In this document: piece after piece, positions 1 to 63,862 of the stretch | Layout of the letters: each line of letters opens with the position of its first letter | Numbering within the stretch: position 1 is the stretch's first letter | DNA from: Myxococcota bacterium | GTDB taxonomy: Bacteria; Myxococcota_A; Polyangia; HGW-17 | Assembly (NCBI GenBank): GCA_018821305.1 | Contig: JAHJMN010000085.1 | Span: 1-63,862, forward strand | Length of the DNA: 63,862 nucleotides | Direction of reading: 5' to 3' | Made by a program: the position numbers and the translations under genes | The notes under the pieces: generated by a model | Told to the model about the DNA's origin: nothing | The model's database searches: none | What the model saw: only the letters and a program-made list of their open reading frames with translations

Positions 1-140
1 AATACCAACTTTTCAAGTTAACGTCTATTTCTATCACAGGACATTAAGAATGAAGACCTTGAAATTATTGTAGTGTTCTGAATAGCATGTTTTCGTAAAC
101 ATGCTCAATTTTGACAAAAATTGAATTTCAGGACACGAAC
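1..140 (+). repeat. S-T composite repeat (partial S right arm plus complete T module), copy 1
   Basis: Positions 52-140 match 63775-63862 with 1 mismatch over 89 nt; hairpin agcatgttt-tcgt-aaacatgct at 84-105; positions 31-51 resemble the S right arm (cacaggacattaa vs caggacagtaa). Confidence 0.85.
84..105 (+). other. conserved 9-bp-stem hairpin of the T module (also at 6044-6065 and 63807-63828); weak terminator-like
   Basis: agcatgttt-tcgt-aaacatgct followed by caattttga; the copy at 6044 keeps pairing through c-to-t and g-to-a compensatory changes. Confidence 0.35.
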
Positions 141-182
141 TCCTTAGTAATACGATAGTGAATCATTTTAAAGAAATACTTC
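141..182 (+). repeat. M-element left-end fragment (solo end)
   Basis: ccttagtaatacgatagtgaatcattttaaagaaatacttc aligns to the left end of M-d (8310-8350) and M-a. Confidence 0.7.
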
Positions 183-254
183 TTTGATGTTGTTCACATT
201 GCGGGTATGTTATAGTATTCTCACTGTTGTTCTCTTAATATTACTGGAGGCGAG

Positions 255-1589
255 ATGAGGCTTTTACATACATCCGACTGGCATCTGGGACGGTCTTTAT
301 ATGATCGCAGACGATATGATGAATTTGAAGCATTCCTTAATTGGCTTCTATCCATAATTATAGAAGAAAACGTGGACACTTTGCTGGTAGCTGGGGATAT
401 CTTTGATACTCCGTCTCCGGCAAACCGGGCTCAGCAACTGTATTACAGATTTTTATCTCAAATCAACAAAACACAATGTGAACATGTGGTTATAACAGCC
501 GGAAATCATGACTCCCCATCTTTTCTGGATGCTCCGGGGGAACTGCTGAAGGCATTGGATGTTCATGTAGTGGGAAGCGCTTCACCGGGAAATCCATTCA
601 ATGAAATAAAGGTCCTTTTAAACAGTCCCTCCATGAGAGGGCCTGTCCCCGAGGGAGATTCACTGTTACATGAAATTGAATGCGGAAATATTATTGCATC
701 TGATGTGAAAGCTGTTGTTTGTGCGGTTCCTTACCTCCGAGACAGGGATATCCGAACAATGGAACCGGGGGAGACTATTGATGATAAAAACCGGAAAATG
801 GCTCTGGGATTACGAAATCATTACAAGGAAGTAATCCAGGCCGCAGAGACAATTTTAGCGGCACTTTACAAAACCGACCTTGATTCGACCCAGAAAAAGA
901 TACCTCTTATTGCCATGGGACATCTCTTTACGGAAAAAGGCCAGACAGTTCGCGGCGATGGAGTCCGGGACCTGTATGTCGGAGGCCTGGTTGGCGTTGA
1001 TGAAAGTGTATTCCCTGAGGTCATAGATTATCTGGCCCTCGGACATCTTCATATGCCCCAGACCGTCGGAGATGCAGCTCATATGCGCTACAGCGGCTCG
1101 CCGATTCCCATGGGGTTTGGTGAATCTAAACAACAGAAATCCGTAATAATTGTTGATTTTGAAAATGAAAACCCCAAACCTCAAGTCAGACTTCTGCCAG
1201 TACCATGTTTTCAGGAGCTAATTCAAATTCAGGGTGATCTTATTGAGATTCAGCAAAAGATACATGAATTGAAACGAGAAAAATCAAGAGCCTGGCTTGA
1301 GATCGAGTATACGGGAAACGAAATTGTTCCCAACTTGAGGCAGGACATTATTGATGAAGTTTCAGACTCTTTGATGGAAGTGAGACGTATTCAGAACCGC
1401 ATGGTAATTGAACGGGTTATGACAGCTTCATCTTCCGGTCAATCCCTTGATGACCTTGATGAGATTGACGTTTTTAACCGTTTGCTCGATGCAAGCGACT
1501 TTGATAATGATTCAAAAGATGATCTTATTGAAGCATTTAATGAAGTCCTGAAAAATCTCTCTGAGGAAGATAATCATGAAGATACTTGA
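255..1589 (+). CDS. sbcD: DNA repair exonuclease SbcD (Mre11-like calcineurin-fold nuclease)
   Basis: N-terminal HTSDWHLG, later VAGDIFD, GNHD and GHLH phosphoesterase motifs; RBS ggagg precedes the ATG; 14-bp overlap with downstream sbcC. Confidence 0.9.
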   Translation: MRLLHTSDWHLGRSLYDRRRYDEFEAFLNWLLSIIIEENVDTLLVAGDIFDTPSPANRAQQLYYRFLSQINKTQCEHVVITAGNHDSPSFLDAPGELLKALDVHVVGSASPGNPFNEIKVLLNSPSMRGPVPEGDSLLHEIECGNIIASDVKAVVCAVPYLRDRDIRTMEPGETIDDKNRKMALGLRNHYKEVIQAAETILAALYKTDLDSTQKKIPLIAMGHLFTEKGQTVRGDGVRDLYVGGLVGVDESVFPEVIDYLALGHLHMPQTVGDAAHMRYSGSPIPMGFGESKQQKSVIIVDFENENPKPQVRLLPVPCFQELIQIQGDLIEIQQKIHELKREKSRAWLEIEYTGNEIVPNLRQDIIDEVSDSLMEVRRIQNRMVIERVMTASSSGQSLDDLDEIDVFNRLLDASDFDNDSKDDLIEAFNEVLKNLSEEDNHEDT

Positions 1590-4500
1590 ACTTCGTTTTA
1601 AGAACCTTAATTCACTTTATGGCGAGTGGATTATAGATTTTACGGATCCGGCTTATGCAGCGGAAGGAATTTTTACACTTACGGGGCCCACAGGAGCCGG
1701 GAAATCGACGATACTGGACGCCATCTGTCTTGCTTTGTACGGGGCTACGCCTCGACTTAAGAAAATAACTAAGAGTGAAAATGAGATAATGTCTCGACTT
1801 ACGGGGGAATGCTATTCCGAGGTGTTATTTGAAACCCGGGAGGGAAGATTCCGATGTCACTGGGTACAGCGCCGAGCCCGCAAACATCATTCTGGTAACC
1901 TTCAGGATTATGAGCATCAGATTGTCGAAGATGAAACTCAAACAATAATAACGGCTAAAAAGAGCGAGGTTCCTTCCGTTGTGGAAGAAAAAACTGGTAT
2001 GGACTTTACTCGCTTTACGCGGGCCATTTTGCTTGCTCAGGGAAGTTTTGATTCATTTTTGAAAGCAGATGATGAAGGGAAGTCCCTGATTCTGGAACAG
2101 ATTACAGGAACTGATATTTACTCAAAAATTTCAATTGCAGTTTATGAACGTAACAAAAAAGAAAGTGAGAAACTGGATTCACTCAGAGGTGAATTAGCTG
2201 GAATCAATGTCCTTGACATCATACAGGAACAGACACTGCGTCAGGATCTCGAAGCAAAACTGGCAGAGGAAACGGGACTTTCTTCAACTTTGAAAAAATG
2301 CACTGAGGCTCTTTCCTGGCTTTCAGGTATGGATTCTTTAACTAAAGAAATTGTTGAAATAGATGCTCTGAAAGCAAAAAAACTGCAGGAAATCGAAGCT
2401 TTCGCCCCACAACGACTGAAACTCGAAAATGCCCGGAGAGCTGCAAATATTGAGGCAGTATATTCTCCAGTCACCGTAAGAAGAAAACAGCTGGCCGAAG
2501 ATGAGGTTAAGCTGGGAATTCAGGAAAAAGCCCTCCCTTTACTTGTTAAATCTGCCGATGATCTGTCTGCTGCTCTCCTGACGGCGGAAAAATACACTAC
2601 TCAGACCAGAGATAATATAACCATCGAAGCTCCGATCTGGAGTAAAATCAAGCTTCTGGATCAACAGATAGTACAAATGTCAACTGTAGTTACAGAACTT
2701 ACCCAGAGCTGTCTGAAAGAAACCAGTGCAATTGAAGAAAAGCAAAAGGAGCGCTCTTCAGAAGTGAAAAAGCGCGATAATGAGGTTATTAAACTTGAGA
2801 AGGCAACTGCATACATTGCAAAGCACGCTTCGGATGAAATGCTTATTTCCGAACTTGGAGCGATTTCAGAGCAATGCCGCAATATCATTGATTTGCAAAC
2901 TGAAATTTCCGCGAAAGCTTCTGAAATTTTAAAAACTGAAAAGGCAGTGTCTGACGGGACGAGGAAACTTGAAACTATCCTGGGGCAGCGCAAACTCAGG
3001 GAAAAAGAAATCGAAGAAACCATTAATAAAAAGCAAATTATTAAGGATGAACTGAAAAAACTCCTCGGGGAAAAGCTCCTCCGTGAATATCGCGCAGAGA
3101 AAGATTCTCTCCAAAAAGAGTTTACACTGCGCATGACCATTGCTTCACTGGAAGAACACCGTTCAAAGCTGGAAGACGGCATTGCGTGTCCCCTGTGCGG
3201 ATCTTTGGAACATCCCTTTGCCAGCGGAAACGTGCCCGAGTCTGATGATGTAAAAAATCGAATCGAGAAACTCCAGGATTTAATCCGGCAATCTGAAGAA
3301 CTCGAAGAAGTCATCCGACTTACGGAAATCACGGAAACTGAAAATCGCAATTTACTTTCAACTGTGATGAAACTGGAAACAGAGGTTGAAATTGATAAAA
3401 AATCAGCACTGCAGACCCTTGAGAATCTGAAAAACGATTTGGAAAAACTGAATGCCAGAGAAGAAATGCTTTTATCTGAGCTTTCTACGAAACTTGGGCC
3501 CCTTGGTATTACGGAGTTTAAAGTACAGACACTTCCATCTATCCTCAAAGAACGAAAAACTGCATATGAAAATCAGATAACCCTTAAAAACGACTGTCAA
3601 AAACAAATTGATTATATTTCCGGGGAAATCAAACGATTTGAAGCTGTTATCGAGAACCTTGAGAGTACCAGAATCGAAAAAAATGAGCACCTCAGACTTC
3701 GTAAAGAAGAACACATCAAACTTGAAACTGAACGAAAACGGTTGTACGGCGATAAAAATCCCGTTGAAGAGGAAGCTCGTTTTAATAAACTACTTGAACA
3801 GGCCATGGAAACGGAAAAAAAGAGCAGAAATCAGCTGGATTTGAAAAAACAGGAACTGACGGGAGCGAAAACCCAGATTGATAGTTTAAAAGGGAGTATT
3901 TCAGGAGGTACAGAAGAACTGAAAAAGTGCGAGGTTGAGTTTGCTGAAGCATTAAAAGCTGCCGGATTTCATGATGAAAGTGAATTCCTGGGGGCAATGC
4001 TTCCATCAATTGAGCGAACTGAACTGGTGAAAAAGGATGATGCTCTGAAATCTGTTTTATTTGAACTCAATACGAAAATGGAGGACCGTAAAACGAGGCT
4101 CGATGTTGAAAAAGAGCGAAAACTTACGGAAAAGAATGCATCAGAACTCAGGACACTCATGGAAACGCTGGAGAAAGATCTTACTTCTTTACGCAATGAT
4201 ATTACGGAATTAAAATTCAAACTTCGGGGAAATGAAGAAGCAAAAAGCAAGATGAGTTCCAGTATTGCCGCTTTAAAAGCTCAGGAAAATGAGGCTGCCA
4301 GATGGAACAAACTGAATACACTTATAGGGTCTAGTAATGGTAAAAAGTTCCGGCATTTCGCCCAGGGATTGACATTTGAAATTCTTGCAGGTCATGCAAA
4401 TGAACAACTTAAAAATATGACGGATCGGTACCTTTTGATTCGTGATGAAAACAAGCCACTTGAGCTTAATGTTATTGATAATTATCAGGCTGGAGAAAGA

Positions 4501-4833
4501 AGATCCATTAAGAATCTCTCCGGAGGGGAGAGTTTTATTGTCAGTCTGGCACTTGCTCTGGGGCTTTCACAGATGTCCAGTGGTAAAATACTTGTGGAGT
4601 CACTCTTTCTTGATGAAGGATTTGGTACCCTCGACGATGAAGCACTTGAAAGCGCGCTGGAGACTCTCTCTACTCTTCAGCAGTCTGGCAAACTCATCGG
4701 TATCATCTCACATTTGTCAGTTTTGAAAGAAAGGATTTCAACGACAATTATGATAAAACCCATCACAGATGGCCGCAGCACAATATCAGGCCCCGGCTGC
4801 CGAAACATTGATCTTGGCAGTGTCAGCTCCTGA
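1576..4833 (+). CDS. sbcC: DNA repair ATPase SbcC (Rad50-like SMC)
   Basis: Walker A GPTGAGKST at N-terminus, long coiled coil, zinc-hook CPLCG in the middle, LSGGE signature and Walker B LFLDEGFGTLD at C-terminus; 1085 aa. Confidence 0.9.
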   Translation: MKILELRFKNLNSLYGEWIIDFTDPAYAAEGIFTLTGPTGAGKSTILDAICLALYGATPRLKKITKSENEIMSRLTGECYSEVLFETREGRFRCHWVQRRARKHHSGNLQDYEHQIVEDETQTIITAKKSEVPSVVEEKTGMDFTRFTRAILLAQGSFDSFLKADDEGKSLILEQITGTDIYSKISIAVYERNKKESEKLDSLRGELAGINVLDIIQEQTLRQDLEAKLAEETGLSSTLKKCTEALSWLSGMDSLTKEIVEIDALKAKKLQEIEAFAPQRLKLENARRAANIEAVYSPVTVRRKQLAEDEVKLGIQEKALPLLVKSADDLSAALLTAEKYTTQTRDNITIEAPIWSKIKLLDQQIVQMSTVVTELTQSCLKETSAIEEKQKERSSEVKKRDNEVIKLEKATAYIAKHASDEMLISELGAISEQCRNIIDLQTEISAKASEILKTEKAVSDGTRKLETILGQRKLREKEIEETINKKQIIKDELKKLLGEKLLREYRAEKDSLQKEFTLRMTIASLEEHRSKLEDGIACPLCGSLEHPFASGNVPESDDVKNRIEKLQDLIRQSEELEEVIRLTEITETENRNLLSTVMKLETEVEIDKKSALQTLENLKNDLEKLNAREEMLLSELSTKLGPLGITEFKVQTLPSILKERKTAYENQITLKNDCQKQIDYISGEIKRFEAVIENLESTRIEKNEHLRLRKEEHIKLETERKRLYGDKNPVEEEARFNKLLEQAMETEKKSRNQLDLKKQELTGAKTQIDSLKGSISGGTEELKKCEVEFAEALKAAGFHDESEFLGAMLPSIERTELVKKDDALKSVLFELNTKMEDRKTRLDVEKERKLTEKNASELRTLMETLEKDLTSLRNDITELKFKLRGNEEAKSKMSSSIAALKAQENEAARWNKLNTLIGSSNGKKFRHFAQGLTFEILAGHANEQLKNMTDRYLLIRDENKPLELNVIDNYQAGERRSIKNLSGGESFIVSLALALGLSQMSSGKILVESLFLDEGFGTLDDEALESALETLSTLQQSGKLIGIISHLSVLKERISTTIMIKPITDGRSTISGPGCRNIDLGSVSS

Positions 4834-4920
4834 TTGATATTGTGTCGCTTTTTTTATGTAGTTCATGTACTGTAATTCTCATCGCAAAGAAATTTATTAG
4901 AATTTCATTAGGGAGAAATT

Positions 4921-5949
4921 ATGGCAGTAAATAATAAAATTACATCATTGATTACATTGTCATTTCTTTGGTACTTGTCTGCCTGCTCCACTCCAAAGCG
5001 GCCAGAGGGCAATTCTCAAAAAAAAATAGTCATTGAAAAGGTTTTCGCAGAGCCGAAAGTAAAACAAGTTGAAAAGTTAAAACAAAAGCCATCAATTCAG
5101 CTTACGCAGACGCAACCAGTTCCTGAAATGAAATCACCTCTGGTTGTATTCAGTTACAAGTTGGGTTGCCAGGAGGCAGCAGCATATATATACCCCGTGA
5201 CATGTTATGATCCGGCAGTAGGACTATGGATTACCGGCCCAAGGTGCCTGCGTTCTTTTGTCGGGACACGTTACCATCTTTTGTCTGATGGAGATGAAAA
5301 AGAAATTAAAGCATCGGCTGCCCTTGATTACAAAATTCCTGGTGTATTTACCTTCCTGCCATACAACAGTGAGCTTTTCGCATTCACAATAATTAAGGAT
5401 ATGACACATATAAAACTGGAAGCGGACAAAAGTCCAAAACTGAGTTGGAGCGAGAAGAAATTTATCAACGCTTTTACACGTCGAACAGCACCTGCATTGG
5501 CAAGAGACAGCGTCGTAAAAAAACCAGTCTTCTGGAAAGAACCGGAAATTGACAATATAAAAATTTTTGAGAGAACCATTGCTGATATTGACGAAGATGG
5601 TAAAAAGGACAGTGTTTATGCTGTGGAAATAACTTTCTCAGGAACAATTTCTCTCACTGCGACCATGCTTGTGTTTGCTCCCAGTGGTGATTTAAAAAAG
5701 CTTTCCTTTTTATTGGACAGCAAGGGAGCTCTAAGCACGCCTCGCTTTGTAGTCAATATTGGCAAAAAGCGATTTGTCCTCTTTCAGGATGATTCATTTT
5801 TATCTGGAGCCCGGGATGGGATAAGACTCATGCTTTGGGAAAATGGACGCCTTACTCCCGCTTTTCATATCTGCTGCATTTACGACAAAAAAATACAGAA
5901 AAACACTCCTGTCATATGTCCGGAAAAGAAAACAAAATCAGTGAAATAG
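4921..5949 (+). CDS. hypothetical lipoprotein (LSAC lipobox)
   Basis: Signal peptide with LWYLSAC lipobox; no recognisable catalytic motifs; ORF of 342 aa with upstream gggag RBS. Confidence 0.6.
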   Translation: MAVNNKITSLITLSFLWYLSACSTPKRPEGNSQKKIVIEKVFAEPKVKQVEKLKQKPSIQLTQTQPVPEMKSPLVVFSYKLGCQEAAAYIYPVTCYDPAVGLWITGPRCLRSFVGTRYHLLSDGDEKEIKASAALDYKIPGVFTFLPYNSELFAFTIIKDMTHIKLEADKSPKLSWSEKKFINAFTRRTAPALARDSVVKKPVFWKEPEIDNIKIFERTIADIDEDGKKDSVYAVEITFSGTISLTATMLVFAPSGDLKKLSFLLDSKGALSTPRFVVNIGKKRFVLFQDDSFLSGARDGIRLMLWENGRLTPAFHICCIYDKKIQKNTPVICPEKKTKSVK

Positions 5950-6077
5950 TTATTGTCCTGTAATACGTTCGTTTCAAGTTTACAGCAATTTTTACACATG
6001 ACATAAAAAATGGAAACCTTGAAATTATTGCAGTGTTCTGAAAAGTATGTTTTCCTAAACATACTCATTTTTGCAAG
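5950..6077 (+). repeat. S-T composite repeat, degenerate copy 2
   Basis: ttattgtcctgtaatacg directly after a TAG stop; T module 6012-6077 shares about 85% identity with copy 1, with the hairpin retained through compensatory changes (agtatgttt / aaacatact). Confidence 0.8.
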
Positions 6078-6122
6078 ATAGTAGATCCTGAGGATTTCCG
6101 GAACAGTATTGTAATTGAATTT

Positions 6123-6190
6123 TACCGCTTCCTTAAATGGTTATGACCTGATCCTGCCCCTGTTTCCTGACTGCCTGTCTACCTGAGATA
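6123..6190 (-). repeat. M-element internal-deletion fragment (right-type end plus CCTG arm)
   Basis: taccgcttccttaaatgg then ttatgacctgatcctgcccctgtttcctgactgcctg resembles the reverse complement of the M right end and CAGG arm. Confidence 0.55.
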
Positions 6191-6241
6191 TACGATATAC
6201 TATATTGCAATACTCTGGCTCAACTTACGTGGGCATCGCTG

Positions 6242-6294
6242 TAATGTCCTGTAATACAGTTTTTCAAATTTTTCGCCGATTTTTCGCTCAGGAC
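6242..6294 (+). repeat. S-like module (degenerate)
   Basis: taatgtcctgtaatacagtttttcaaatttttcgccgatttttcgctcaggact compared with 63712-63768. Confidence 0.6.
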
Positions 6295-6354
6295 TCTCAC
6301 TGTTTTCTGCGAAAACAGTTGTCGATTTTGACGATTTCATGCGGAAATACGAAC

Positions 6355-6566
6355 TAGACCGCTTGCGGAATAAAAGGATTGAAAAGTGAAAAGTGTAAGT
6401 TTTCATCAACCATTTGTAATTATGCTTTGATGTTGTAAGTTTATGACCTGATTCTGATCCTGTTTGCCTGACTACCTGAGTTTCTGTTTAAAATTTCAGG
6501 GAAACAGGAAATCAGTAGCAGGAGCAGGACAATCAGGGTCTCTTTCCTGAAGCATTTCTTTAATAA
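6355..6566 (-). mobile_element. M element, reverse orientation, lacking its left-type terminus (copy M-f)
   Basis: tagaccgcttgcggaataaaaggattgaaa (right-type end) ... cctg arm ... cagg arm ... tctttcctgaagcatttctttaataa; aligns with M-g along its length. Confidence 0.8.
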
Positions 6567-6723
6567 TAATAACCATATGGTTTTCATCCATAAATTTACC
6601 CAGAACTTTGTCCTTTATTGAAGTAATCTTTTTCTCAAGGAAATGGATGGTTAATCCGCATATGGCTACAGTTGCATAATATACTTTAGAGTGTTGCGGA
6701 AGTCAAGGGCGTTTATTATATTT

Positions 6724-6817
6724 AGTTCGTGTCCTGTAATTCGCTTCGCTAAGGATTTTATTAAAAATCCTAACTAGACCGCTTGCGGAGTAATACGATT
6801 GTGACTCGGTTTAAACA
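6724..6817 (+). repeat. composite: caggacacgaac module (reverse complement), 8-bp hairpin, then solo M left end
   Basis: agttcgtgtcctg; aggatttt-atta-aaaatcct hairpin; ctagaccgcttgcggagtaatacgattgtgactcggtttaaaca is identical to the M-a left end over about 40 nt; ends 35 bp before the 6851 start codon. Confidence 0.8.
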
Positions 6818-6850
6818 TATGTAGTTCAACGAAAAAACTGGAGGAATATT

Positions 6851-8236
6851 ATGATACTGGATGAGAACACGTTAACTTCATCTAAAATCGGACTATTTAT
6901 TGTTATCTTTTTTCTATCCGCCTGCGCCGGTAGTGGGAAAAAGACTTCAGGATCCGGAGCGCCTACAGACCTGTCGGTCACTCCTGACTCCACAACGGAG
7001 CTTTTTCTTACATGGAAAGACAATACCGATACCGAGACCGGTTTCGTTATTGAACGCAGCGTAGATGGTCTCCATTTTGCAAATATCCATGAGACATTAC
7101 CTGACGAGACATCATGGACTGACACCGGTCTTAACCACTCAACAATGTACTACTATCGGGTTCAAGCAAAATTTGGCGATGCATTTTCCGGGTATTCCAA
7201 CGTGGCCTCCACATCCACACTTTGTGATGGGAACACTTCCCTTCGCTGTGGAGATCTATGCGTTAATCCCAACTATGACAAACTCAACTGTGGAACGTGC
7301 GGTAATGACTGCGATGACGGTCAGGTCTGCATCGAGGGAAGTTGTACGGAATCTCCTTGCGATCCTCCATGTCAAAACGGCGGAACATGCAGCGGACTCA
7401 ACCAATGCGAGTGCCTGAATGGATGGTCTGGGGAAACCTGTGAGGAATCGCTTTGCGATCCACCTTGCCAAAACGGTGGAACTTGTATCGGCGTAAATCA
7501 GTGCGAGTGCCTGAGCGGATGGTCAGGAGTAACCTGTGAGGAATCGCTATGCGATCCACCTTGCCAAAACGGTGGAACCTGCAGTGGCCCTGATCAGTGT
7601 TCATGTCCAGCTGGATGGTCGGGAGACATCTGTAATGTACCAAACTGCAATCCATCCTGCCAGAATGGTGGAACCTGCATAGCTCCGAATCAGTGTACAT
7701 GTCCTAATGGGTGGACAGGACAAACTTGTGAAACAGTAACTGATGCAATTCCCATCGACAAAATAGATATGGCTGCTCGGGGTGTTGGTAGTGAGCAGGT
7801 TTTAACCTGGCCACAAACAGCTCAATTGAACAGTATGAATATCCACTGGGGCAGTTGGTACGGAGCACCAACATGGTATGTCGATATTGACGCTGTGGGT
7901 CACCTTTCCTGGACTGAATATCGACCTTATGGAGGCCCTAACGATGTGTTGATTACCGGGAACATTTGGATCCTCGTTCCCCAGTCCGGTTCAGATCGTT
8001 GGTGGGCCGCTCCTTTCGAGGGACTGGTTAAATTTACTACCATTCATTGCGCGGGGAATCTTAATTTTGAACGTACCAACATCCTCGAAAACTCGCCTCT
8101 GGCTTCCCCCTGGCAGCCACAAGCAGGTGTGACTTACGGATGGATGATATCCACTAATGTATCCACATTCTTTCCTAGCTCTAACGATGATCAGCGCAGT
8201 AACATTATCCTCGAGACATGGCCTCCGAATCCATAA
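6851..8236 (+). CDS. secreted lipoprotein with fibronectin-III domain followed by five tandem EGF-like repeats
   Basis: Lipobox FFLSAC; FN3-like segment (LTWKDNT...YYYRVQA); five repeats of CDPPCQNGGTCxGxNQCxCxxGWSGxTCEES with classic EGF cysteine spacing; ggagg RBS at 6839. Confidence 0.65.
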   Translation: MILDENTLTSSKIGLFIVIFFLSACAGSGKKTSGSGAPTDLSVTPDSTTELFLTWKDNTDTETGFVIERSVDGLHFANIHETLPDETSWTDTGLNHSTMYYYRVQAKFGDAFSGYSNVASTSTLCDGNTSLRCGDLCVNPNYDKLNCGTCGNDCDDGQVCIEGSCTESPCDPPCQNGGTCSGLNQCECLNGWSGETCEESLCDPPCQNGGTCIGVNQCECLSGWSGVTCEESLCDPPCQNGGTCSGPDQCSCPAGWSGDICNVPNCNPSCQNGGTCIAPNQCTCPNGWTGQTCETVTDAIPIDKIDMAARGVGSEQVLTWPQTAQLNSMNIHWGSWYGAPTWYVDIDAVGHLSWTEYRPYGGPNDVLITGNIWILVPQSGSDRWWAAPFEGLVKFTTIHCAGNLNFERTNILENSPLASPWQPQAGVTYGWMISTNVSTFFPSSNDDQRSNIILETWPPNP

Positions 8237-8298
8237 ATTGCTCTTTGGAGCACTGATTCACATTCAAATAAAGACATCTTCATAACCAATTGCAATCA

Positions 8299-8576
8299 CT
8301 AAACCGCTTCTTGAGTAATACGATAGTAACTTAATTTAAAGAAATACTTCAGGAAAACGACGCTCAATAGCATTCCCCTGCGCGAAATTGCCTACCTGAT
8401 TGTCCTGATTCTGCTACTGGTTGCCTGTGTACCTGAAATTTTTACAGGTAAGTAGGTAAGCAGGAAACAGGAGCAGCAGCAGGTCGTAAACATTCAGCAT
8501 AAAGGCATAATTACAAAAGAAGACAATAATCCACTCAGTTTGAGATTTCGATCTTTTTACTCAAGAAGCGGTTTAG
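8299..8576 (+). mobile_element. M element, complete copy M-d (MITE, IS630/Tc1-like: TA-flanked, 21-bp perfect TIRs)
   Basis: TA at 8299-8300 and at 8574-8575; left aaccgcttcttgagtaa is the exact reverse complement of right ttactcaagaagcggtt; central cctg-arm / cagg-arm hairpin 8389-8487; conserved core cattcccctgcgcgaaattgcctacctg. Confidence 0.9.
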
Positions 8577-10697: not shown

Positions 10698-10901
10698 GAG
10701 TTCGTGTCCTATTGCATTCCGCTGCGTGAAATTGCCTGCCTGAATTCCCTTTTACTGCTACTGCTTACCTGATTTTTTTAACAGACAATCAGGAATTCAG
10801 AAAATCAGGTTCAGGATCTGTGTAACCATTCAGAATTAAAACGAACGTAATTTTTAATTCAATTTCCCGGTTTCGATCCTTTTATTCCGCAAGCGGTCTA
10901 G
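10698..10901 (+). mobile_element. M element copy M-b, left end replaced by caggacacgaac module (reverse complement)
   Basis: gagttcgtgtcct then conserved core attgcattccgctgcgtgaaattgcctgcctg, hairpin arms, right end tttcgatccttttattccgcaagcggtc followed by TA (10899-10900). Confidence 0.85.
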
Positions 10902-16331: not shown

Positions 16332-16589
16332 TTGAATAACGTCCTCTCAACCTGTTGCATTTCACAAGGCGAAATTGCTTGCCTGTAATCCATTACGGAA
16401 CACAAAAGATATTTTATGTCCTGAATTCCGAAACGAAACAACATAAATTGACTATTTTATATGCCCATAGTTGCGAATTTAATTTATTAAAAGTGTGTTT
16501 TGAAGAAAAAATTACAAAAAAATCAACACTCCACTTTGCACAGAACAGACAAAGGTGTATACTGTCATACCATTTCAGGAGGAGTACCC

Positions 16590-18077
16590 ATGAAAAAACT
16601 TACAATCTCTATAATTTTAGGTCTTGCGATGATTGCAGCTCCGGGTTGCGACGATGATTCTTCAAATCCGGCTCAGGAGATCTGTGATAACGGTAAGGAC
16701 GATGATGGCGATGGATTTATTGACTGTCTTGACCAGAACTGCTTTGGTGATCCCGCCTGCAACAGCACTCAGGAAATCTGCGACAACGATCAGGATGATG
16801 ATGGTGACGGATTTGTGGATTGCGATGATGCCGATTGCGTAAACGAATGCGAATACACAGAAATCTGCAACAATGAAATCGACGACGATGACGATGGTTA
16901 TGTAGACTGCGATGATCAGGATTGCTCCGGCAGCCAATTCTGCAATGCAACAGAGGAAATCTGCAACAATAACCTTGATGATGATCTCGATGGTGCCATT
17001 GACTGCGATGACTCCGATTGTTCCGAACATCCATCCTGCATCACAAATGATGAAATCTGTGACAATGGCGTTGATGACGATGGGGACGGGTTTGTGGATT
17101 GCAATGACGCCGATTGCGAAGACGAATGCGAATTAACAGAAGTCTGCAACAATGAGCAGGACGATGATGAAGACGGTTTTGTAGATTGTGAAGATCAGGA
17201 TTGCTGGAATCACCAGTACTGCAACCTTCCTGTGGAAAACTGCACAAACGGCATTGACGACGATATGGACGGCGATGTTGACTGTGAAGACGGCGACTGT
17301 CGTGAACACCCTGACTGCTGGATCACTCAGGAAGATTGTGAAAACGGCATTGACGATGACAACGACGGCTTCGTTGACTGCAACGATTCCGACTGTGCGG
17401 ATCAGTGTGTCTTCCTTGAAAATTGTAATAATCAGATTGATGATGATGGCGATGGATATGTTGACTGTGAAGATCAGGATTGCTGGAACAATCAGGTTTG
17501 TCAGGCTCAGACGGAAATCTGCTATAACGGCCTTGATGATGACGGTGATGGCGACATCGATTGCGATGACTGGGACTGCTATAATTCACCCTATTGCCCG
17601 GGCTCTGAAGAAATCTGCAATAACATGTGGGATGATGATGGCGATGGCGACATCGATTGCGCCGATGCAGACTGCGCAATGGATCCATGGTGTCAGACTC
17701 CTAGAGAACAGGATTGCTCAAACTGGCAGGACGATGATGGCGACGGATATCGTGATTGCCGTGATTCCGACTGCATAGGAGATGCAGCATGCGGTGAATG
17801 TAACGCAGTGGATGGCTCCGGATGCGGAAATGGGACTTATTGCTACTTTGATCGTCAGGATAATTATCAGGGCAACTGCACAACGGAGCATGGTACAGGA
17901 AGTGTTGGAGATCCCTGCCAGACGGAAACGGAATGTTCCGTAGGTCTTTTCTGCAATCAACAAACAGATGTTTGTGACGAACTTTGCCTCCTTGGCACTG
18001 TATGTTCATCCTCAGGCGGCACTGCAACCATGTGTACTGAAGCATGGAACGGAAGCCCCTACGGCTACTGTCCGTAA
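16590..18077 (+). CDS. secreted lipoprotein made of ~11 Cys/Asp-rich putative metal/Ca-binding repeats (ICDNGxDDDGDGFVDCxDxDC)
   Basis: RBS aggagga then ATG at 16590; lipobox LAMIAAPGC; tandem ~37-aa repeats with higher-order ~330-nt nucleotide periodicity; the ORF-track start at 16500 is upstream of the RBS and judged too early. Confidence 0.7.
   Translation: MKKLTISIILGLAMIAAPGCDDDSSNPAQEICDNGKDDDGDGFIDCLDQNCFGDPACNSTQEICDNDQDDDGDGFVDCDDADCVNECEYTEICNNEIDDDDDGYVDCDDQDCSGSQFCNATEEICNNNLDDDLDGAIDCDDSDCSEHPSCITNDEICDNGVDDDGDGFVDCNDADCEDECELTEVCNNEQDDDEDGFVDCEDQDCWNHQYCNLPVENCTNGIDDDMDGDVDCEDGDCREHPDCWITQEDCENGIDDDNDGFVDCNDSDCADQCVFLENCNNQIDDDGDGYVDCEDQDCWNNQVCQAQTEICYNGLDDDGDGDIDCDDWDCYNSPYCPGSEEICNNMWDDDGDGDIDCADADCAMDPWCQTPREQDCSNWQDDDGDGYRDCRDSDCIGDAACGECNAVDGSGCGNGTYCYFDRQDNYQGNCTTEHGTGSVGDPCQTETECSVGLFCNQQTDVCDELCLLGTVCSSSGGTATMCTEAWNGSPYGYCP
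16650..17700 (+). repeat. intragenic tandem DNA repeats (about 111 nt units in about 330-nt higher-order blocks) encoding the Cys/Asp-rich repeats
   Basis: Recurring gaaatctgcgacaa ... gatgatgatggcgatgg ... gattgcgatgat strings at about 111-nt spacing across 16650-17700. Confidence 0.7.
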
Positions 18078-19159: not shown

Positions 19160-19310
19160 CCCTGTTTTCAATCCTGATCCCTGCCCCTGTTTTGCTGATT
19201 CCCTCGCTACCTGATTTCCTGAATGTTCTTGATTTTATCAATGCTTATTCTTTTTTTTAACAATAACAGTTAATACGCCTTAACCAAATAGCATTGGGTA
19301 TAGAAACCTT
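19160..19310 (-). repeat. partial M-k-like unit (CCTG arm) fused to a Q-like module
   Basis: ccctgttttcaatcctgatccctgcccctgttttgctgattccctcgctacctgatttcctgaat then ttaatacgccttaaccaaatagcattggg; compare 60390-60528. Confidence 0.6.
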
Positions 19311-21141: not shown

Positions 21142-21165
21142 CCTTCACATTTACAGCGATGCCCA

Positions 21166-21447
21166 CGTTACCGTTTTCGGAGTAATACTATAGTGAACAA
21201 TTTTCAGTAAATGCTACAGGAATGAGCCCCTCTAAAGCATTCCGCTGCGCGTTATTGCCTACCTGATTACCTTGTTCATGCTAATGATTTCCTGTTTGCC
21301 TGATTTTTTTTAACAGGAACTCAGGCAGTCAGGCAAACAGGCTCAGGATCAGGTCATAAACATTCAATATCAATGTAAAATTAAAAAGACTGAAAGAAAA
21401 TACTCACTGTTCTATTCTCGATCCTTTTACTCGAAAGCAGTCTAATC
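21166..21447 (+). mobile_element. M element, complete divergent copy M-c
   Basis: TA-ccgttttcggagtaatactatagtgaac ... conserved core aaagcattccgctgcgcgttattgcctacctg ... hairpin ... ctcgatccttttactcgaaagcagtc-TA. Confidence 0.85.
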
Positions 21448-30989: not shown

Positions 30990-31394
30990 ATGGGTTTCAG
31001 GCGTATGTTCAAATCCAAGATCCATCGAGCCACCGTGACTCAGGCGGATCTAGAATATGAAGGCTCGCTTACCATCGATACGGACCTTCTTGAAAAAGCA
31101 GATATACTTCCATGGGAGGAAGTGCACATCTGGAACGTCACTAACGGCTCAAGGCTAACGACCTATGCCATTGAAGGACCTCGCGGCAGCGGTACAATCT
31201 GCATCAATGGAGCAGCTGCACATCTGGTAAACCCGGGAGATGTTGTTATTATTGCTACTTTTACAGATATTGAAGAATCTGCTGCCCGAAATTATCAACC
31301 CACCGTTGTGTTGGTCGACTCCTCTAATAAAATATTAGATCCTGCCTATACCGAAACCCCGGGACCGAATCTTCCCCTTCGTAAATTCAGCTAA
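30990..31394 (+). CDS. panD: aspartate 1-decarboxylase
   Basis: [25 protein letters not shown] with the Gly-Ser self-processing site; start placed at ATG 30990 behind a gagga RBS (ORF-track start 30924 judged too early). Confidence 0.85.
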
Positions 31395-31395
31395 A

Positions 31396-31450
31396 TAGTT
31401 ACTGTCCTGAAATTCAATTTTTCAAAGGGTTCTTTGCCTGAAGTTTTTCT
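31396..31450 (+). repeat. S-prime module (tagttactgtcctga ... ttcaaagggttctttgcctgaagtttttct), truncated by the M-g insertion
   Basis: Matches 31719-31795 (about 80% identity); begins 2 nt after the panD TAA stop. Confidence 0.7.
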
Positions 31451-31451
31451 T

Positions 31452-31697
31452 TTGACCGCTTCATGAGTAAAAGGATCGAAATCTAAAAAGTGAATATTGT
31501 CATCCTACCCTTTGTAATTATGCTTTGATTTTAAATGTTTATGACCTGAACCTGATCCTGATTGCCTGACTACCTGTGTCCCTTTTTAAAATTTCAGGGA
31601 AACAGGAACTCAGTAGCAGGAACAGGAAAACAGGGGGCTCATTCCTGAAGCATTTCTTTAAAACAAGTCACACTCGTATTACTCCGCAAGCGATCTA
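31452..31697 (-). mobile_element. M element, complete copy in reverse orientation (M-g)
   Basis: ttgaccgcttcatgagtaaaaggatcgaaat (reverse complement of right-type end) ... cctg/cagg hairpin ... cattcctgaagcatttctttaaaacaagtcacactcgtattactccgcaagcgatc-TA. Confidence 0.85.
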
Positions 31698-31718
31698 CTT
31701 ATATTTTCAACACCTTGC

Positions 31719-31836
31719 GGTTACTGTCCTGAGCAATAATTGGGCGAAAAATTTGATTTTCGGTATTTCAAAGGGGTCTTTGCCTGAAGTTTTTCTCTAA
31801 AATTCAACACAATCGTATTACTTCACAAGCGGTCAA
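31719..31836 (+). repeat. second S-prime module plus a left-type M terminus in reverse orientation
   Basis: ggttactgtcctgagc ... ttcaaaggggtctttgcctgaagtttttctc then caatcgtattacttcacaagcggtc. Confidence 0.7.
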
Positions 31837-31877
31837 TTTTCGTTTCGTTTGCACATAGATCGGTTTTAAAGAAAGAG

Positions 31878-31896
31878 TTCACATTTTGTTTGTGAA
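31878..31896. promoter_or_regulatory. palindromic candidate operator TTCACA-N7-TGTGAA upstream of the lipoprotein-rex operon
   Basis: Perfect 6-bp inverted half-sites at 31878-31883 and 31891-31896, about 105 bp upstream of the 32002 start codon; half-site order is everted relative to the canonical Rex box TGTGAA-N6-TTCACA. Confidence 0.3.
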
Positions 31897-32001
31897 TTTT
31901 TTCCTGATCAGGTATAAAAGTATCTTCAGATTTTTTAGACGCTTTTATCCGCATGAGTTCCTTTCTGGAACATTTAAGCGGAAACTTTATTATGGTGACC
32001 T

Positions 32002-32814: not shown

Positions 32815-33482
32815 ACGGAGATAGCACCATTTCATCGAAAGGAAATCCCATTCCTCATGCTACGATGGAGCGTTTGCCCAGATATCTGATGCAACTCTAT
32901 CGCTTCCGGGTTATTGGTGATGCCAATGTATCATCTCAGGCTCTGGGTGAAAGCCTGGGACTCAAAGACACTCAAATCCGAAAGGATCTCTCGTACTTTG
33001 GTGTCTTTGGGAAAGCTCGTTATGGATACAATATTGACTTTCTCATCGATGCTCTGGAGAAAATTCTCGGACTGACTCGAGTTTATAATCTAGCCATCGT
33101 TGGAGCTGGAAACATCGGCCGAGCCCTGGCAACGTACCGAGGTTTCGAGAGTAGAGAATTTAGAGTAAAACTGATTTTCGACAATAATAAAGGTCTCATC
33201 GGTCAGGATATTGGAGGCATTGTTGTTCAGGACTTTCGACTGCTTGAAGAAAAGATAAAAGAAATTCCCGTCGATATAGCGATAATTGCGGTTCCTGAAA
33301 AAGCCGCTTATGAAGTAGCTGAAACCCTTGTAAAAGCAGGCATTAAAGCAATTTATAACTTTACACCTGCGGAACTTCACCACCACGAAGGTGTTTTCAT
33401 TGAGCATGCAAGTATATCCTTCGGGATTTACAAACTTGCTCACCACCTTTCCGGCCACTGGCCCCGGAAATCCCAGCGCTAG
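32811..33482 (+). CDS. rex: redox-sensing transcriptional repressor Rex
   Basis: N-terminal winged helix IPHATMERLPRYLMQL and Rossmann IVGAGNIGRALA NADH-binding motif. Confidence 0.85.
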   Translation: MNGDSTISSKGNPIPHATMERLPRYLMQLYRFRVIGDANVSSQALGESLGLKDTQIRKDLSYFGVFGKARYGYNIDFLIDALEKILGLTRVYNLAIVGAGNIGRALATYRGFESREFRVKLIFDNNKGLIGQDIGGIVVQDFRLLEEKIKEIPVDIAIIAVPEKAAYEVAETLVKAGIKAIYNFTPAELHHHEGVFIEHASISFGIYKLAHHLSGHWPRKSQR

Positions 33483-35010: not shown

Positions 35011-35118
35011 ATTAGACCGCATTCGGAATAAAAGTATCGAAACCATATTATTGTGAGTGTAAAATTGAATGATATTTTAAAAATTCAATTCAATCGTATT
35101 ACTCTGAAAGCGGTCTGG
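35011..35118 (-). mobile_element. mini-M element (internal-deletion derivative, about 104 bp between the flanks)
   Basis: TA-gaccgcattcggaataaaagtatcgaaacc ... caatcgtattactctgaaagcggtc-TG; both termini present, central hairpin absent; internal 8-bp hairpin aattgaat / attcaatt. Confidence 0.8.
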
Positions 35119-36211: not shown

Positions 36212-37132
36212 ATGCCAGATTTCAGAAGTATGGGAATTACTGATTTACTTCTTGCTCATCCGTCTTTACAGACAATGTTCATTTTTTTACTCCCAACGTT
36301 TGCAATATTTCTATTTATTGTCCAGTGGGCTGAAAGTAAAAAAGAAGACGCACTCAAAGATAATTTAGCAATGTTAAAAACAGGACTATACATTGTTGAG
36401 ATTATGGCAGTATTTTATGCAGTTGGTGGTGTTTTCCTTCTTATCGATTTCATATTCAGCAAAATGACTTCAGAACCACTCAACACATCTGCACTGAAAG
36501 CCGGTCTTGGATACATCATTGGTGGTGCTGCCGTTACGATTGCCATGGAGCTTGCAATTGTTTTCCTTGGTACTCCTGAAAAAAATCGCCTGCCTCGAAA
36601 ACTTGCTTTCACAAGCATGCTTCTTATTTTCGCCATCGTTGCAGCTGAAAGTATGCTCAGACTCCTTGCATCCATCACCATGTTCCCCAAAGGAGCTGCA
36701 TTCCATGTTCCGCTGTCCGGATTCCTGGTATACGTTCCCGCTACTTTCTTCGCTATGCTTTACTACAAAGCAATCTTCAGTAGCGACAACGGGCCAGTGA
36801 CTTTCCTTCCGGGAAGTTTTGTTAACAAAGCCAATCAAATGGTAGAAAAATCCGGCGTTGGATCCTTCGGCGCTGCTGCAGTCGGTGGTGCCGCTGCTGC
36901 TGGAATGGGCGGAGCTCCCGCTGCATCTCAACCCCAGCAGTATTCTCAACCCGTTGCTCAGGCTCAGCCTCAGCAGTTTTCTCAACCTGTTGCTCAGGCT
37001 CAGCCCCAGCAGTTTTCTCAACCCGTTGCTCAGGCTCCTGCAGCAAATGCATGTCCCACCTGCGGTGCTGCCGGTCGTCATATTCCCCAGTACAGCCGCT
37101 ACTGGTGCGATACCTGCCAGAAATATCTCTAA
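36212..37132 (+). CDS. polytopic membrane protein with triplicated QPQQFSQPVAQA repeat and C-terminal zinc ribbon
   Basis: About 6 TM helices; three near-perfect 12-aa repeats (nucleotide-level identical); C-terminal CPTCG...CDTC. Confidence 0.6.
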   Translation: MPDFRSMGITDLLLAHPSLQTMFIFLLPTFAIFLFIVQWAESKKEDALKDNLAMLKTGLYIVEIMAVFYAVGGVFLLIDFIFSKMTSEPLNTSALKAGLGYIIGGAAVTIAMELAIVFLGTPEKNRLPRKLAFTSMLLIFAIVAAESMLRLLASITMFPKGAAFHVPLSGFLVYVPATFFAMLYYKAIFSSDNGPVTFLPGSFVNKANQMVEKSGVGSFGAAAVGGAAAAGMGGAPAASQPQQYSQPVAQAQPQQFSQPVAQAQPQQFSQPVAQAPAANACPTCGAAGRHIPQYSRYWCDTCQKYL

Positions 37133-60149: not shown

Positions 60150-60161
60150 TTCGTCAGTTTA

Positions 60162-60528
60162 ACTTAACCCCAACAGTATTGTGTCTAATGGCAATGCTGA
60201 TCGGTTAGCGAACTTCCGAGTGAATTAATTAATAAATACAATCTTGTATAATAATTTCAGGCAGGCAGGAATTCAGGAAAACAGGGATCAGGAACAGGGC
60301 GTTTACTTTGAAGGTGTGCGTTTTTGTGGCATAAAGACCGCTTTCGTAAGCGGTCAAGATCGATTTCAATTCAGTATTTGCATATACACCTTCAGGAACA
60401 AGACCCTGTATCCTGATTCTGCTCCTGTTTCTGACTCCCTGAATATTTTTACTATTACTTATTATTATTATTTTTGTTAACAATATCAACTAATACGCCT
60501 TAACCGATCAGCATTGTGTCTAATGGCA
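60162..60528. repeat. composite locus: Q module (A-B), inverted CAGG/CCTG hairpin unit M-k with palindromic core agaccgctttcgtaagcggtc, then Q module (B-prime-A)
   Basis: 60174-60207 cagtattgtgtctaatggcaatgctgatcggtta and 60490-60528 aatacgccttaaccgatcagcattgtgtctaatggca share attgtgtctaatggca directly and gctgatcggtta inverted; cagg arm 60258-60296; cctg arm 60392-60440. Confidence 0.7.
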
Positions 60529-61248: not shown

Positions 61249-61379
61249 GGAAACAGCTTATAGGCATACTTCAGAGAAACACTTCTGTACCATGATAGAA
61301 ATTCAAGATTCTAACTGAAATATATTTCAATAAAAGCTTATTTACAATAAACATTTAAACTCTAACACTATACTCCAAT

Positions 61380-61660
61380 TCTAGACCGCTTGCGGAGTAA
61401 TACGATTGTGACTCGTTTTAAAGAAATGCTTCAGGAAAGAGCCCCCTCTATGGCATTCCGCTGCGCGAAATTGCCTACCTGTTTTCCTGTTGCTGCTACT
61501 GCTTACCTGGTTACCTGAAATTTTAAACAGGTATACAGGAAGTCAGGAAAACAGGTTCAGGATCAGCGGTTAAACATTCAATATCAATAATAATTAAAAA
61601 GAATGTAATTTTTAATTCATTTTCCCAATTTCGATCCTTTTAATCCGCAAGCGGTCTAAT
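61380..61660 (+). mobile_element. M element, complete reference copy M-a (about 277 bp between TA flanks)
   Basis: TA-gaccgcttgcggagtaatacgattgtgactcg ... core gcattccgctgcgcgaaattgcctacctg ... cctg arm/loop aaattttaaa/cagg arm ... cgatccttttaatccgcaagcggtc-TA; followed at 61689-61702 by ttcaggacacgaac. Confidence 0.9.
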
Positions 61661-61733
61661 TTCCATTTTCGCATTCGCCATTTTAATTTTCAGGACACGA
61701 ACGAATTAAGTGGTGGACTGGATATCGGAAATT

Positions 61734-63149: not shown

Positions 63150-63172
63150 ACTATACAAAAACTGTTCATGAC

Positions 63173-63285
63173 TATACCGCTTCCTGAGTAATACGATTGT
63201 GACTCGTTTTAAAGAAATGCTTCAGGAAAGAGCCCCCTGTTTTCCTGTTGCTGCTACTGCTTACCTGGTTATCTGAAATTTTGAG
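63173..63285 (+). mobile_element. M element 5-prime portion (copy M-j), with a 32-bp internal deletion removing the conserved core, truncated within the hairpin
   Basis: Near-identical to M-a positions 61383-61447 and 61480-61521 (one mismatch, tt vs ta, at 63270-63271); breaks off after ctgaaatttt. Confidence 0.85.
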
Positions 63286-63416
63286 AAAACATCTTCTCCA
63301 AAAAAAGGTTTACACCTTATATATGTTAGGTTATAAATCATTTAAGCCCGAAGTTTTCGGGTTTAAATGCAAACAGATCATGAGCACCAGTTTGCTCAAA
63401 CAATGGAGGCAATAAT

Positions 63417-63707
63417 ATGGAATTATCGGTATGCGGAGTTGATTGCAGTGAATGTGAATTTTTCAAAAACCAAACCTGTGCAGGTTGTAATGCCATAAAG
63501 GGAAAGGTTTTCTGGACCACCCATCTGAATACAGATGTATGTCCAATTTACAGTTGTGTTTCAACTGTCAAAAACGTAGATGATTGTGGAAAGTGTGGCG
63601 ATGTTCCCTGTAAAATATGGAAAGACTTACGCGATCCCGCCTGGGATGACCAGCAGCACGCCGAAAGCATCCGCAAACGCCTCGATAACCTGAAAACCCT
63701 CAAATAA
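63417..63707 (+). CDS. small cysteine-rich protein (DUF3795-like)
   Basis: 96 aa, about 14 Cys in CxxC-like pairs (CGVDCSEC ... CAGC ... CGKCGDVPC); RBS tggaggc. Confidence 0.6.
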   Translation: MELSVCGVDCSECEFFKNQTCAGCNAIKGKVFWTTHLNTDVCPIYSCVSTVKNVDDCGKCGDVPCKIWKDLRDPAWDDQQHAESIRKRLDNLKTLK

Positions 63708-63709
63708 TT

Positions 63710-63862
63710 AATTACTGTCCTGTAATACAATAAATCAAATTTTTCGCCGATTTTTTGCTCAGGACAGTAACAACGAAGACCTTGAAATTATTGTAGTGTT
63801 CTGAATAGCATGTTTTCGTAAACATGCTCAATTTTGATAAAAATTGAATTTCAGGACACGAA
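63710..63862 (+). repeat. S-T composite repeat, copy 3 (complete S hairpin plus T module, running to the window edge)
   Basis: TA-ctgtcctg (63712-63722) ... caggacag-TA (63760-63770); T module 63775-63862 nearly identical to 52-140; hairpin 63807-63828. Confidence 0.85.

Follow-up and report, generated by a model that had tools for sequence, protein, structure and literature searches.

The stretch analysed here, hereafter the window, is the whole 63,862 bp of contig JAHJMN010000085.1, which NCBI labels as an uncultured "Myxococcota bacterium", and its longest intergenic spacer, the 901-bp gap at 5950-6850 (hereafter the island), is the subject of this analysis. A crude gene map gave 53 long open reading frames (ORFs) and 7.9 kb of intergenic DNA. 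The contig carries chromosomal-type genes, namely sbcD, sbcC, dinB and genes for a MoxR-type ATPase and a sugar nucleotidyltransferase, and its best domain-level relatives carry the labels Bradymonadia or Bradymonadales. The gene on the left of the island had no homologs among 5.8 billion proteins, and the protein on the right gave domain-level matches only, with no full-length ortholog found. Between them lies a real, repeat-built and gene-free spacer, which contains at least two groups of non-coding repeats with terminal inverted repeats (TIRs), M and S/T/V, together with the smaller pieces W, U and H (Table 1).

The longest ORF in the island has 69 aa, starts with TTG and lacks a Shine-Dalgarno sequence. 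It is pieced together from S, M-end and U segments, whose frames are interrupted by stops in other copies. This bears out the preliminary description, made from the letters alone, which had seen no credible ORF at 5950-6850 and had taken the minus-strand ORF called at 6200-6409 for an artefact of the repeats. The four longest island ORFs had no Pfam match, and the 48-aa and 69-aa ORFs, the two looked up, are on record in no public assembly. Rfam gave no match in the whole window at the gathering threshold, and at E <= 1 the sole match in the island was a plant miRNA model (E = 0.22). A tRNA/tmRNA search found none in the island, and no sigma-70 promoter for the 461-aa gene was found on the plus strand of the island upstream of 6851.

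Self-BLAST of 5900-6900 against the whole window, together with a repeat finder, showed that 66% of island bases recur elsewhere in the window, versus ~33% for other intergenic DNA, and 77% do so once matches to two related genomes are added. No copy in the window or in any related locus searched was found for 6295-6338, 6577-6709 and 6822-6850. The island is thus the patchwork of dispersed repeats that had been described, and the wording "almost entirely" goes beyond these fractions. All the modules previously listed are present at more than chance level, and alignment upholds the homology of the fragments to the M and S-T modules. The reverse-orientation M element without the standard left terminus (M-e) was recognised correctly, being 84% identical to 31454-31661 (BLAST match 6357-6563, E 8e-58) and 73-78% identical to three other M copies, and so were two perfect hairpins, one then placed at 6299-6317 (6299-6319 with its full 9-bp stem) and one reading aggatttt/aaaatcct (6752-6771, 8-bp stem). 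Two entries needed adjustment: the recurrent 20-nt string given as 6221-6240 is a repeat, with an exact 18-mer at 6227-6244 (as written, the string lies at 6225-6244), and the solo M left end, said to stop 35 bp before the ribosome-binding site, ends at 6821, ~20 nt before the GGAGG at 6842-6846. Module W (6074-6121) comes in addition to that list.

Table 1 Features of the island and its borders, with the full-length M copies of the window
Feature	Position	Strand	Details
Upstream gene, 342-aa lipoprotein-like ORFan	4921-5949		left neighbour of the island
Degenerate S-T composite	5947-6073	+	76% identity to 63706-63836 (E 3e-24), 81% to 1-113 (E 4e-25); BLAST match from 5944
Module W	6074-6121	+	identical to L028 4785-4832 at 44/48 nt; single copy in the window; fold z -0.02
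Module H, solo M hairpin arm without TIRs	6115-6190	-	CAGG array and GGTCATAAC flank
Arm-to-U unit	6175-6244	+	ends in U = ACGTGGGCATCGCTGTAA (6227-6244)
Solo S element, right terminus truncated	6242-6294	+	89% identity to 63713-63765 (E 8e-13); fold z -1.37
Terminator-like perfect hairpin (9-bp stem) with a T-rich run after it	6299-6319	+	-8.4 kcal/mol, z -1.9; no other copy found
M-e, reverse M element	6355-6566	-	TA (6355-6356), right-type TIR GACCGCTTGCGGAATAAAAGGAT and central hairpin
Stretch without detectable copy	6577-6709		133 nt; no match in the window or any locus fetched
Module V	6710-6772	+	T/V-type terminus GTTCGTGTCCTG (6725-6736, TA before) and 8-bp hairpin AGGATTTT/AAAATCCT (6752-6771)
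TA and solo M left end (GACCGCTTGCGGAGTAATACGATTGTGACTCG...)	6775-6821	+	94% identity to 61381-61428, E 3e-13
GGAGG ribosome-binding site (6842-6846) and ATG of the 461-aa gene	6842-6853	+	right border of the island
Downstream gene, 461-aa fn3/EGF-repeat	6851-8236		Pfam matches fn3 and EGF; right neighbour of the island
Full M copies	61382-61658, 8300-8575, 21167-21446, 31452-31697		

M is a non-coding element of ~277 bp (246-280 bp) that begins with GACCGCTTGCGGAGTAA..., and its TIRs of 25-30 nt (CTAGACCGCTTGCGGAGTAATACGAT... / ...ATCCTTTTATTCCGCAAGCGGTCTAG) enclose a central CCTG/CAGG hairpin of ~100 nt. A short form without the hairpin (~100 bp) lies at 35013-35117, and a form of 115 bp occurs in a relative. 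A fuzzy search recovered ~10 copies or fragments with 15 recognisable termini in the 64 kb, all of them intergenic. No ORF is conserved in M or in S and S-T, and the frames are broken between copies, so that small size, lack of coding capacity and TIRs together match the features of a MITE (miniature inverted-repeat transposable element). The hairpin arms of four copies (61470-61575, 8388-8495, 31530-31640, 6440-6545) carry CTG/CAG at a fixed 8-6-6-8-8 spacing, with spacers between the motifs that vary between copies and often mispair. CCTG/CAGG occurs in the arms 6-9 times per 100 nt versus 1.09 in the window, an eight-fold enrichment. With compensatory change in only 2 of the 36 hairpin pairs, we do not claim a conserved RNA from the M hairpin; judged by their sequences, the arms resemble an array of conserved motifs more closely than a hairpin with a structural role only.

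S, T and V share the terminus GTTNNTGTCCTG = GTT(A/C)(C/G)TGTCCTG, often preceded by TA in the terminus scan, and ~10 such termini were found in the 64 kb, again all intergenic. S has a length of ~58 nt and inverted termini (TACTGTCCTG / CAGGACAGTA), which in an intact copy pair into a stem of 10 bp (z = -5.5); S-T composites have ~150 nt, and T and V contain perfect internal hairpins. The contig starts (1-113) and ends (63706-63862) inside S-T copies that are 96% identical over 103 nt. This implies that the assembly broke at the S-T family and that the genome holds many copies of it. A composite transposon around the 342-aa gene, with V (4846-4902) and S-T (5949-6073) as its ends, was considered and rejected, because both termini have the same orientation.

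Scans of genomes, metagenomes and viral sequences found the M terminus in two other genomes only. The first is the metagenome-assembled genome (MAG) "Deltaproteobacteria bacterium ZodW_Metabat.263" (hereafter ZodW), with a contig syntenic with the window at 23.6-30.3 kb (52-88% amino-acid identity); the second is represented by the 4.8-kb Logan contig L028, the nearest sbcC relative, whose sbcCD is 78% identical at the nucleotide level. True M copies in the genome-contig scan came from the ZodW MAG only, two JGI metagenome scans gave no match and two chance matches in a coding region, and the IMG/VR viral scan gave two chance matches only. In L028 the sequence after the sbcC stop codon is an M element starting at the TA of that stop, followed by W; this M element aligns best with M-e of the island and likewise lacks the standard left terminus. 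The arm-to-U unit of the island is 74% identical over 70 nt to 2940-3006 of the ZodW locus L019, where it stands beside an M element. The M-W match in L028 and the arm-U unit in ZodW thus indicate that the families are modular and lineage-restricted, and either predate the split of the species or were passed between relatives.

Several further observations concern the same repeats. The M TIR contains a variable triplet that varies in concert at the left and right ends of the same copy (GCG/GCG, CTT/CTT and TTC/TTC in the window, for the ends 8302-8320/8555-8573, 61384-61400/61640-61656 and 21169-21185/21430-21444; CAT/CAT in ZodW), which suggests, from the aligned ends, sub-families or end-to-end homogenisation. 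At 60336-60355 two M TIR tips stand head to head in a perfect palindrome, GACCGCTT-TCGT-AAGCGGTC, between two separated CAGG/CCTG arms, and the adjacent 60252-60345 is 77% identical to 4166-4261 of ZodW L016. Upstream of sbcD, the terminus type of module V recurs in L028: positions 142-190 of the window and 1-60 of L028 share a T/V-type terminus at that place (..GGACACGAAC), and the shared GATGTTGTTCACATT is preceded, in the window alone, by an additional 44-nt M-left fragment. Intergenic DNA at 19211-19302 and 60431-60522 represents another repeat family (76% identity over 92 nt), with no relation to M, S or T.

The available sequence of L028 ends 185 nt after sbcC (4663-4847). The 342-aa gene is absent from these 185 nt, which are filled by M and W, and the comparison indicates turnover of gene content at the sbcC-342-aa locus. 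Such turnover, together with two flanking genes that have no orthologs, would fit a history in which the island is the remnant of one or more deleted or pseudogenised genes later colonised by repeats, with 6577-6709 as a decayed coding remnant. No ORF remnant gave a Pfam match (no translated search aimed at the stretch was made), the unique stretch has just 133 nt, and we consider this history very improbable. The 133 nt could derive from the original spacer or from a repeat that has decayed or was not sampled; they contain a lone promoter-like match on the minus strand (6706-6678), and across the scanned region promoter-like matches are as frequent as in shuffled sequence.

The state of the island's copies points to serial insertion followed by decay. 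In the S-T composite at its left end, an S-type terminus (GTTATTGTCCTG) begins at 5949 in the terminus scan, the S part folds no better than shuffled sequences (z +0.18), and the T part keeps a 9-bp hairpin at 6044-6065 (z -3.9). Module W may be an alternative M terminus; its resemblance to an inverted variant of the M left TIR is too loose to be claimed. Module H (BLAST match 6115-6185) shows 78-83% identity to M right arms at 21314-21385 (78%, E 2e-10), 31531-31583 and 61528-61581, with CAG motifs spaced 8-4-4-7-6-6. The 18-mer U recurs exactly but inverted at 21151-21168, where it adjoins M-c at its left end (0.04 chance matches expected). The central hairpin of M-e is more stable than shuffles (z -3.5), module V is 79% identical to 4846-4902 over 6710-6766 (E 5e-9) and has a hairpin with z -4.65, and the solo M left end shares an exact 35-nt match (6774-6808) with the copy at 61381-61428 and is, by sequence identity, the youngest-looking fragment of the island. 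The damage thus comprises two S copies without a fold (z +0.18 and -1.37 versus -5.5 for intact S), an M-e without one terminus, H as a lone arm and a 45-nt lone M end. The earlier picture of a graveyard formed by serial insertion is therefore supported, since most island copies are truncated or degraded. "Nested" insertion is another matter: serial insertion and decay stand, and true nesting, in which one element interrupts another with both halves recoverable, could be demonstrated for no pair in the island. A preferred site or hotspot is not shown: the island makes up 11% of the window's intergenic DNA and holds 2 of the 15 M termini, a proportional share, and similar multi-module clusters lie at 31395-32001, 60150-60519, 61249-61709 and 63150-63862.

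The position and folding of these repeats also bear on a functional alternative, in which they are REP/BIME-like (repetitive extragenic palindrome/bacterial interspersed mosaic element) or host-recruited structural elements, such as 3'-end stabilisers, terminators or protein-binding arrays, and the island is a functional untranslated or regulatory region. S elements stand 0-8 nt after stop codons in five cases, the intact S, T, V and M hairpins are far more stable than shuffles (z -3.5 to -5.5), the motif spacing of the M arms is fixed while the spacers vary, and the island has the terminator-like hairpin at 6299-6319. The T hairpin of the island also differs from those at 63809-63830 and 86-107 by a compensatory C-G to T-A pair (AGCATG../..CATGCT to AGTATG../..CATACT) that keeps the 9-bp stem. 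However, the S copies in the island no longer fold, promoter-like and terminator-like matches are as numerous as in shuffles, and compensatory change in the M hairpin is as scarce as stated above. REPs are palindromes of 20-40 nt with a conserved GT[AG]G head and without long TIRs or TA flanks. The elements described here have termini of the type GACCGC... or GTTNNTGTCCTG, without a GT[AG]G REP head, and units of 58-280 nt (no genome-wide RAYT search was made), and their long TIRs and TA flanks point to DDE transposition rather than RAYT-type REP mobility. Since both neighbours are lineage-specific, conservation of the spacer is not assessable. Taken together, a functional origin of the island seems unlikely.

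The flanks of the elements carry the clearest trace of how they moved. TA flanks 11 of the 15 M termini (P = 3.6e-10 with 0.074 as the frequency of TA in intergenic DNA), eight of these 11 ends have a C before the TA (P = 3.7e-4), and the first base of M at the 11 ends is G in eight cases, A in two and T in one, which gives C-TA-G junctions. This TA and CTAG context of the M ends is the signature of IS630/Tc1-mariner elements. TA duplication has been shown in vitro for ISY100 (PMC2170065), a CTAG preference of IS630 is mentioned there with reference to Tenzen & Ohtsubo 1991, and bacterial MITEs in general have TIRs, a terminal TA and an intergenic location (PMC2229807). As G or A stands at the start of the elements, a TAG or TAA stop codon is restored when one of them enters its TA. 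M elements lie at the stop codons 8573-8575 (dinB), 10898-10900 and 33480-33482, and S elements at 31392-31394 and 5947-5949. The last of these is the left border of the island, where the TAG of the upstream gene consists of the flanking TA and the first G of the element. Stop-codon junctions were also found in relatives, after sbcC in L028 (~4660-4662) and in contig L013 (~7883-7885). That elements sit directly after genes would thus be explained by the regeneration of the stop upon insertion into its TA.

As repeats of this kind can mislead an assembler, the continuity of the island needs separate consideration. Where independent assemblies of this organism overlap the window they match it at 100% identity, yet they break inside the island. 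The NCBI contig JAHJNQ010000032.1 (L001) equals window 1-6471 and then diverges for its last 66 nt (6472-6537), which form an M-arm variant with 94% identity to 6133-6186 (module H) read as its reverse complement; the branch falls in the middle of the M-e hairpin and is due either to a fork in the assembly graph or to polymorphism between strains. Logan contigs span 300-6076 and 6786-8342, the latter contig (L003) beginning within the solo M left end. Hence 5950-6471 and 6786-6850 are independently supported, and the path 6471-6786 is seen in this contig only. The longest exact repeat that the island shares with the rest of the window has 35 nt, so long exact repeats in the window do not explain the breaks at 6076 and 6471, which probably stem from copies elsewhere in the genome or from strain heterogeneity. 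Part of the island could then be an artefact, through a mis-join within 6471-6786 from the M hairpin near 6471 to the M left end near 6786, the real spacer being shorter or different. The departure of L001 into another M-arm variant, the Logan contigs that halt at 6076 and resume at 6786, the ends of the window inside S-T repeats, and look-ups of the downstream genes, which gave short Logan contigs only and no other long contig across 6471-6786, are all in keeping with such a mis-join. On the other hand, M-e is collinear with four other M copies across 6471 and up to 6566, L001 ends 66 nt past the branch, like a dead-end branch, the exact in-window repeats are short, and the part confirmed by L001 makes up 58% of the island with six modules. 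We judge a mis-join to be rather unlikely; it would alter the length and order of modules and not the nature of the region.

Combined with the above analysis, we favour, with a probability of about 0.72, the view that the spacer consists of accumulated and decayed fragments of non-autonomous, TIR-bearing, MITE-like elements that belong to several related families, plentiful in this Myxococcota genome and in the two relatives, and target TA. The module homologies, the TIRs, the flank statistics, the stop-codon junctions, the non-coding nature and the damage to the island copies are shown; the transposase family, an actual duplication of the TA, the order of events and any effect on transcription are inferred. 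A DDE transposase of the IS630/Tc1-mariner type would move the elements in trans, inserting them at TA, preferably within CTAG, and duplicating it, and GACCGCTTGCGG-type ends would bound the transposase gene of the cognate element. Insertion into a stop codon's TA would rebuild TAG or TAA and hence be tolerated, so that insertions would collect just after genes and inside earlier insertions. Copies would then decay by truncation and point mutation into solo ends, solo hairpin arms and degraded palindromes, and the spacer would grow because nothing selects against it.

A number of points weigh against this view. Four of the 15 M termini have no TA, and an empty site was not found, as the ZodW synteny ends before its M copy and the flanking genes of the island have no orthologs; the TA may therefore be the element's own terminal dinucleotide and not a duplication. 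No cognate transposase was found among the 16 ORFs screened with Pfam, 10 mid-sized candidates included (the other 37 of the 53 long ORFs were unscreened), and the genome, metagenome and viral scans gave MITE copies or chance matches only. A plain neutral-MITE model does not account for the fixed 8-6-6-8-8 spacing of the M arms with its scarce compensatory change, nor for W, U and the 133-nt stretch at 6577-6709. M also exceeds, with ~277 bp, the <200 bp typical of bacterial MITEs (PMC2229807), and the module order at 6471-6786 comes from one assembly. As a tentative and more specific version, possible rather than probable, M and S/T/V may be undescribed, lineage-restricted modular MITEs of Bradymonadia-like Myxococcota, in which G/A termini regenerate stops, the CCTG/CAGG arrays, more than a simple hairpin, bind a protein (a transposase or a host factor), and the TIR core, arm array, U and W recombine semi-independently.

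Some genes of the window are themselves repetitive. The 461-aa protein next to the island contains an fn3 domain and four tandem 96-nt EGF-like repeats, and its domain-level matches include many metazoan proteins of the Notch/Delta/VWDE type and others that are Bradymonadia FGE-sulfatase fusion proteins. The gene at 16500-18077 has 12 tandem repeats of ~96/87 nt, which encode Cys-/Asp-rich units (E-I-C-x-N-x-x-D-D-D-G-D-G-x-x-D-C-x-D-x-D-C). Three tandem 36-nt repeats (36927-37037, ~90-95% identical) lie within the ORF 36212-37132, which has no Pfam match.

For the genomics of this lineage, the repeats matter in that they break short-read assemblies, create spurious ORFs and supply the stop codons or 3' ends of ~9% of the window genes. 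They illustrate cleanly how MITEs that target TA/CTAG are tolerated at stop codons and how repeat clusters grow through insertions into DNA that was dispensable before. They do not constitute a new class of system: M and S/T/V are new repeat families of an already known kind.

Among known systems, the pneumococcal RUP element (repeat unit of pneumococcus), a MITE that IS630-Spn1 presumably mobilises, resembles M in being non-coding, with TIRs, TA insertion and many intergenic copies (PMC2229807). RUP has 107 bp and TIRs that match a known insertion sequence (IS), whereas M has ~277 bp, a CCTG/CAGG-array hairpin, no IS partner found and an unrelated sequence. The Correia/NEMIS elements of Neisseria are, like M, TA-flanked, with ~26-bp TIRs and length variants, lie next to genes, and form long hairpins in their transcripts (PMC2229807). 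They differ in having 100-155 bp with an integration host factor (IHF) site and promoter elements and show no sequence similarity to M or S/T/V, and stop-codon regeneration and arrayed CAGG are not among the Correia features described in PMC2229807. IS630 and ISY100 share with M the TA target, the CTAG-like context and the TIRs (PMC2170065), but they are autonomous, ~1-1.2 kb long and encode a transposase, while the elements described here encode nothing. REP/BIME sequences resemble the island in being short palindromic units just downstream of genes and forming mosaics of several types (PMC2817692); S, with ~58 nt and a 10-bp terminal stem, and M, with its 25-30-nt TIRs, are unlike REPs. A parallel in arrangement is provided by BOX, RUP and SPRITE of Streptococcus pneumoniae, different small families that, according to PMC10969869 (citing PMC3049150), share intergenic regions in bunches and insert into one another, some with terminator-like hairpins; they belong to another host phylum and to other families, and the cluster in the island is distinguished by its many truncated fragments.

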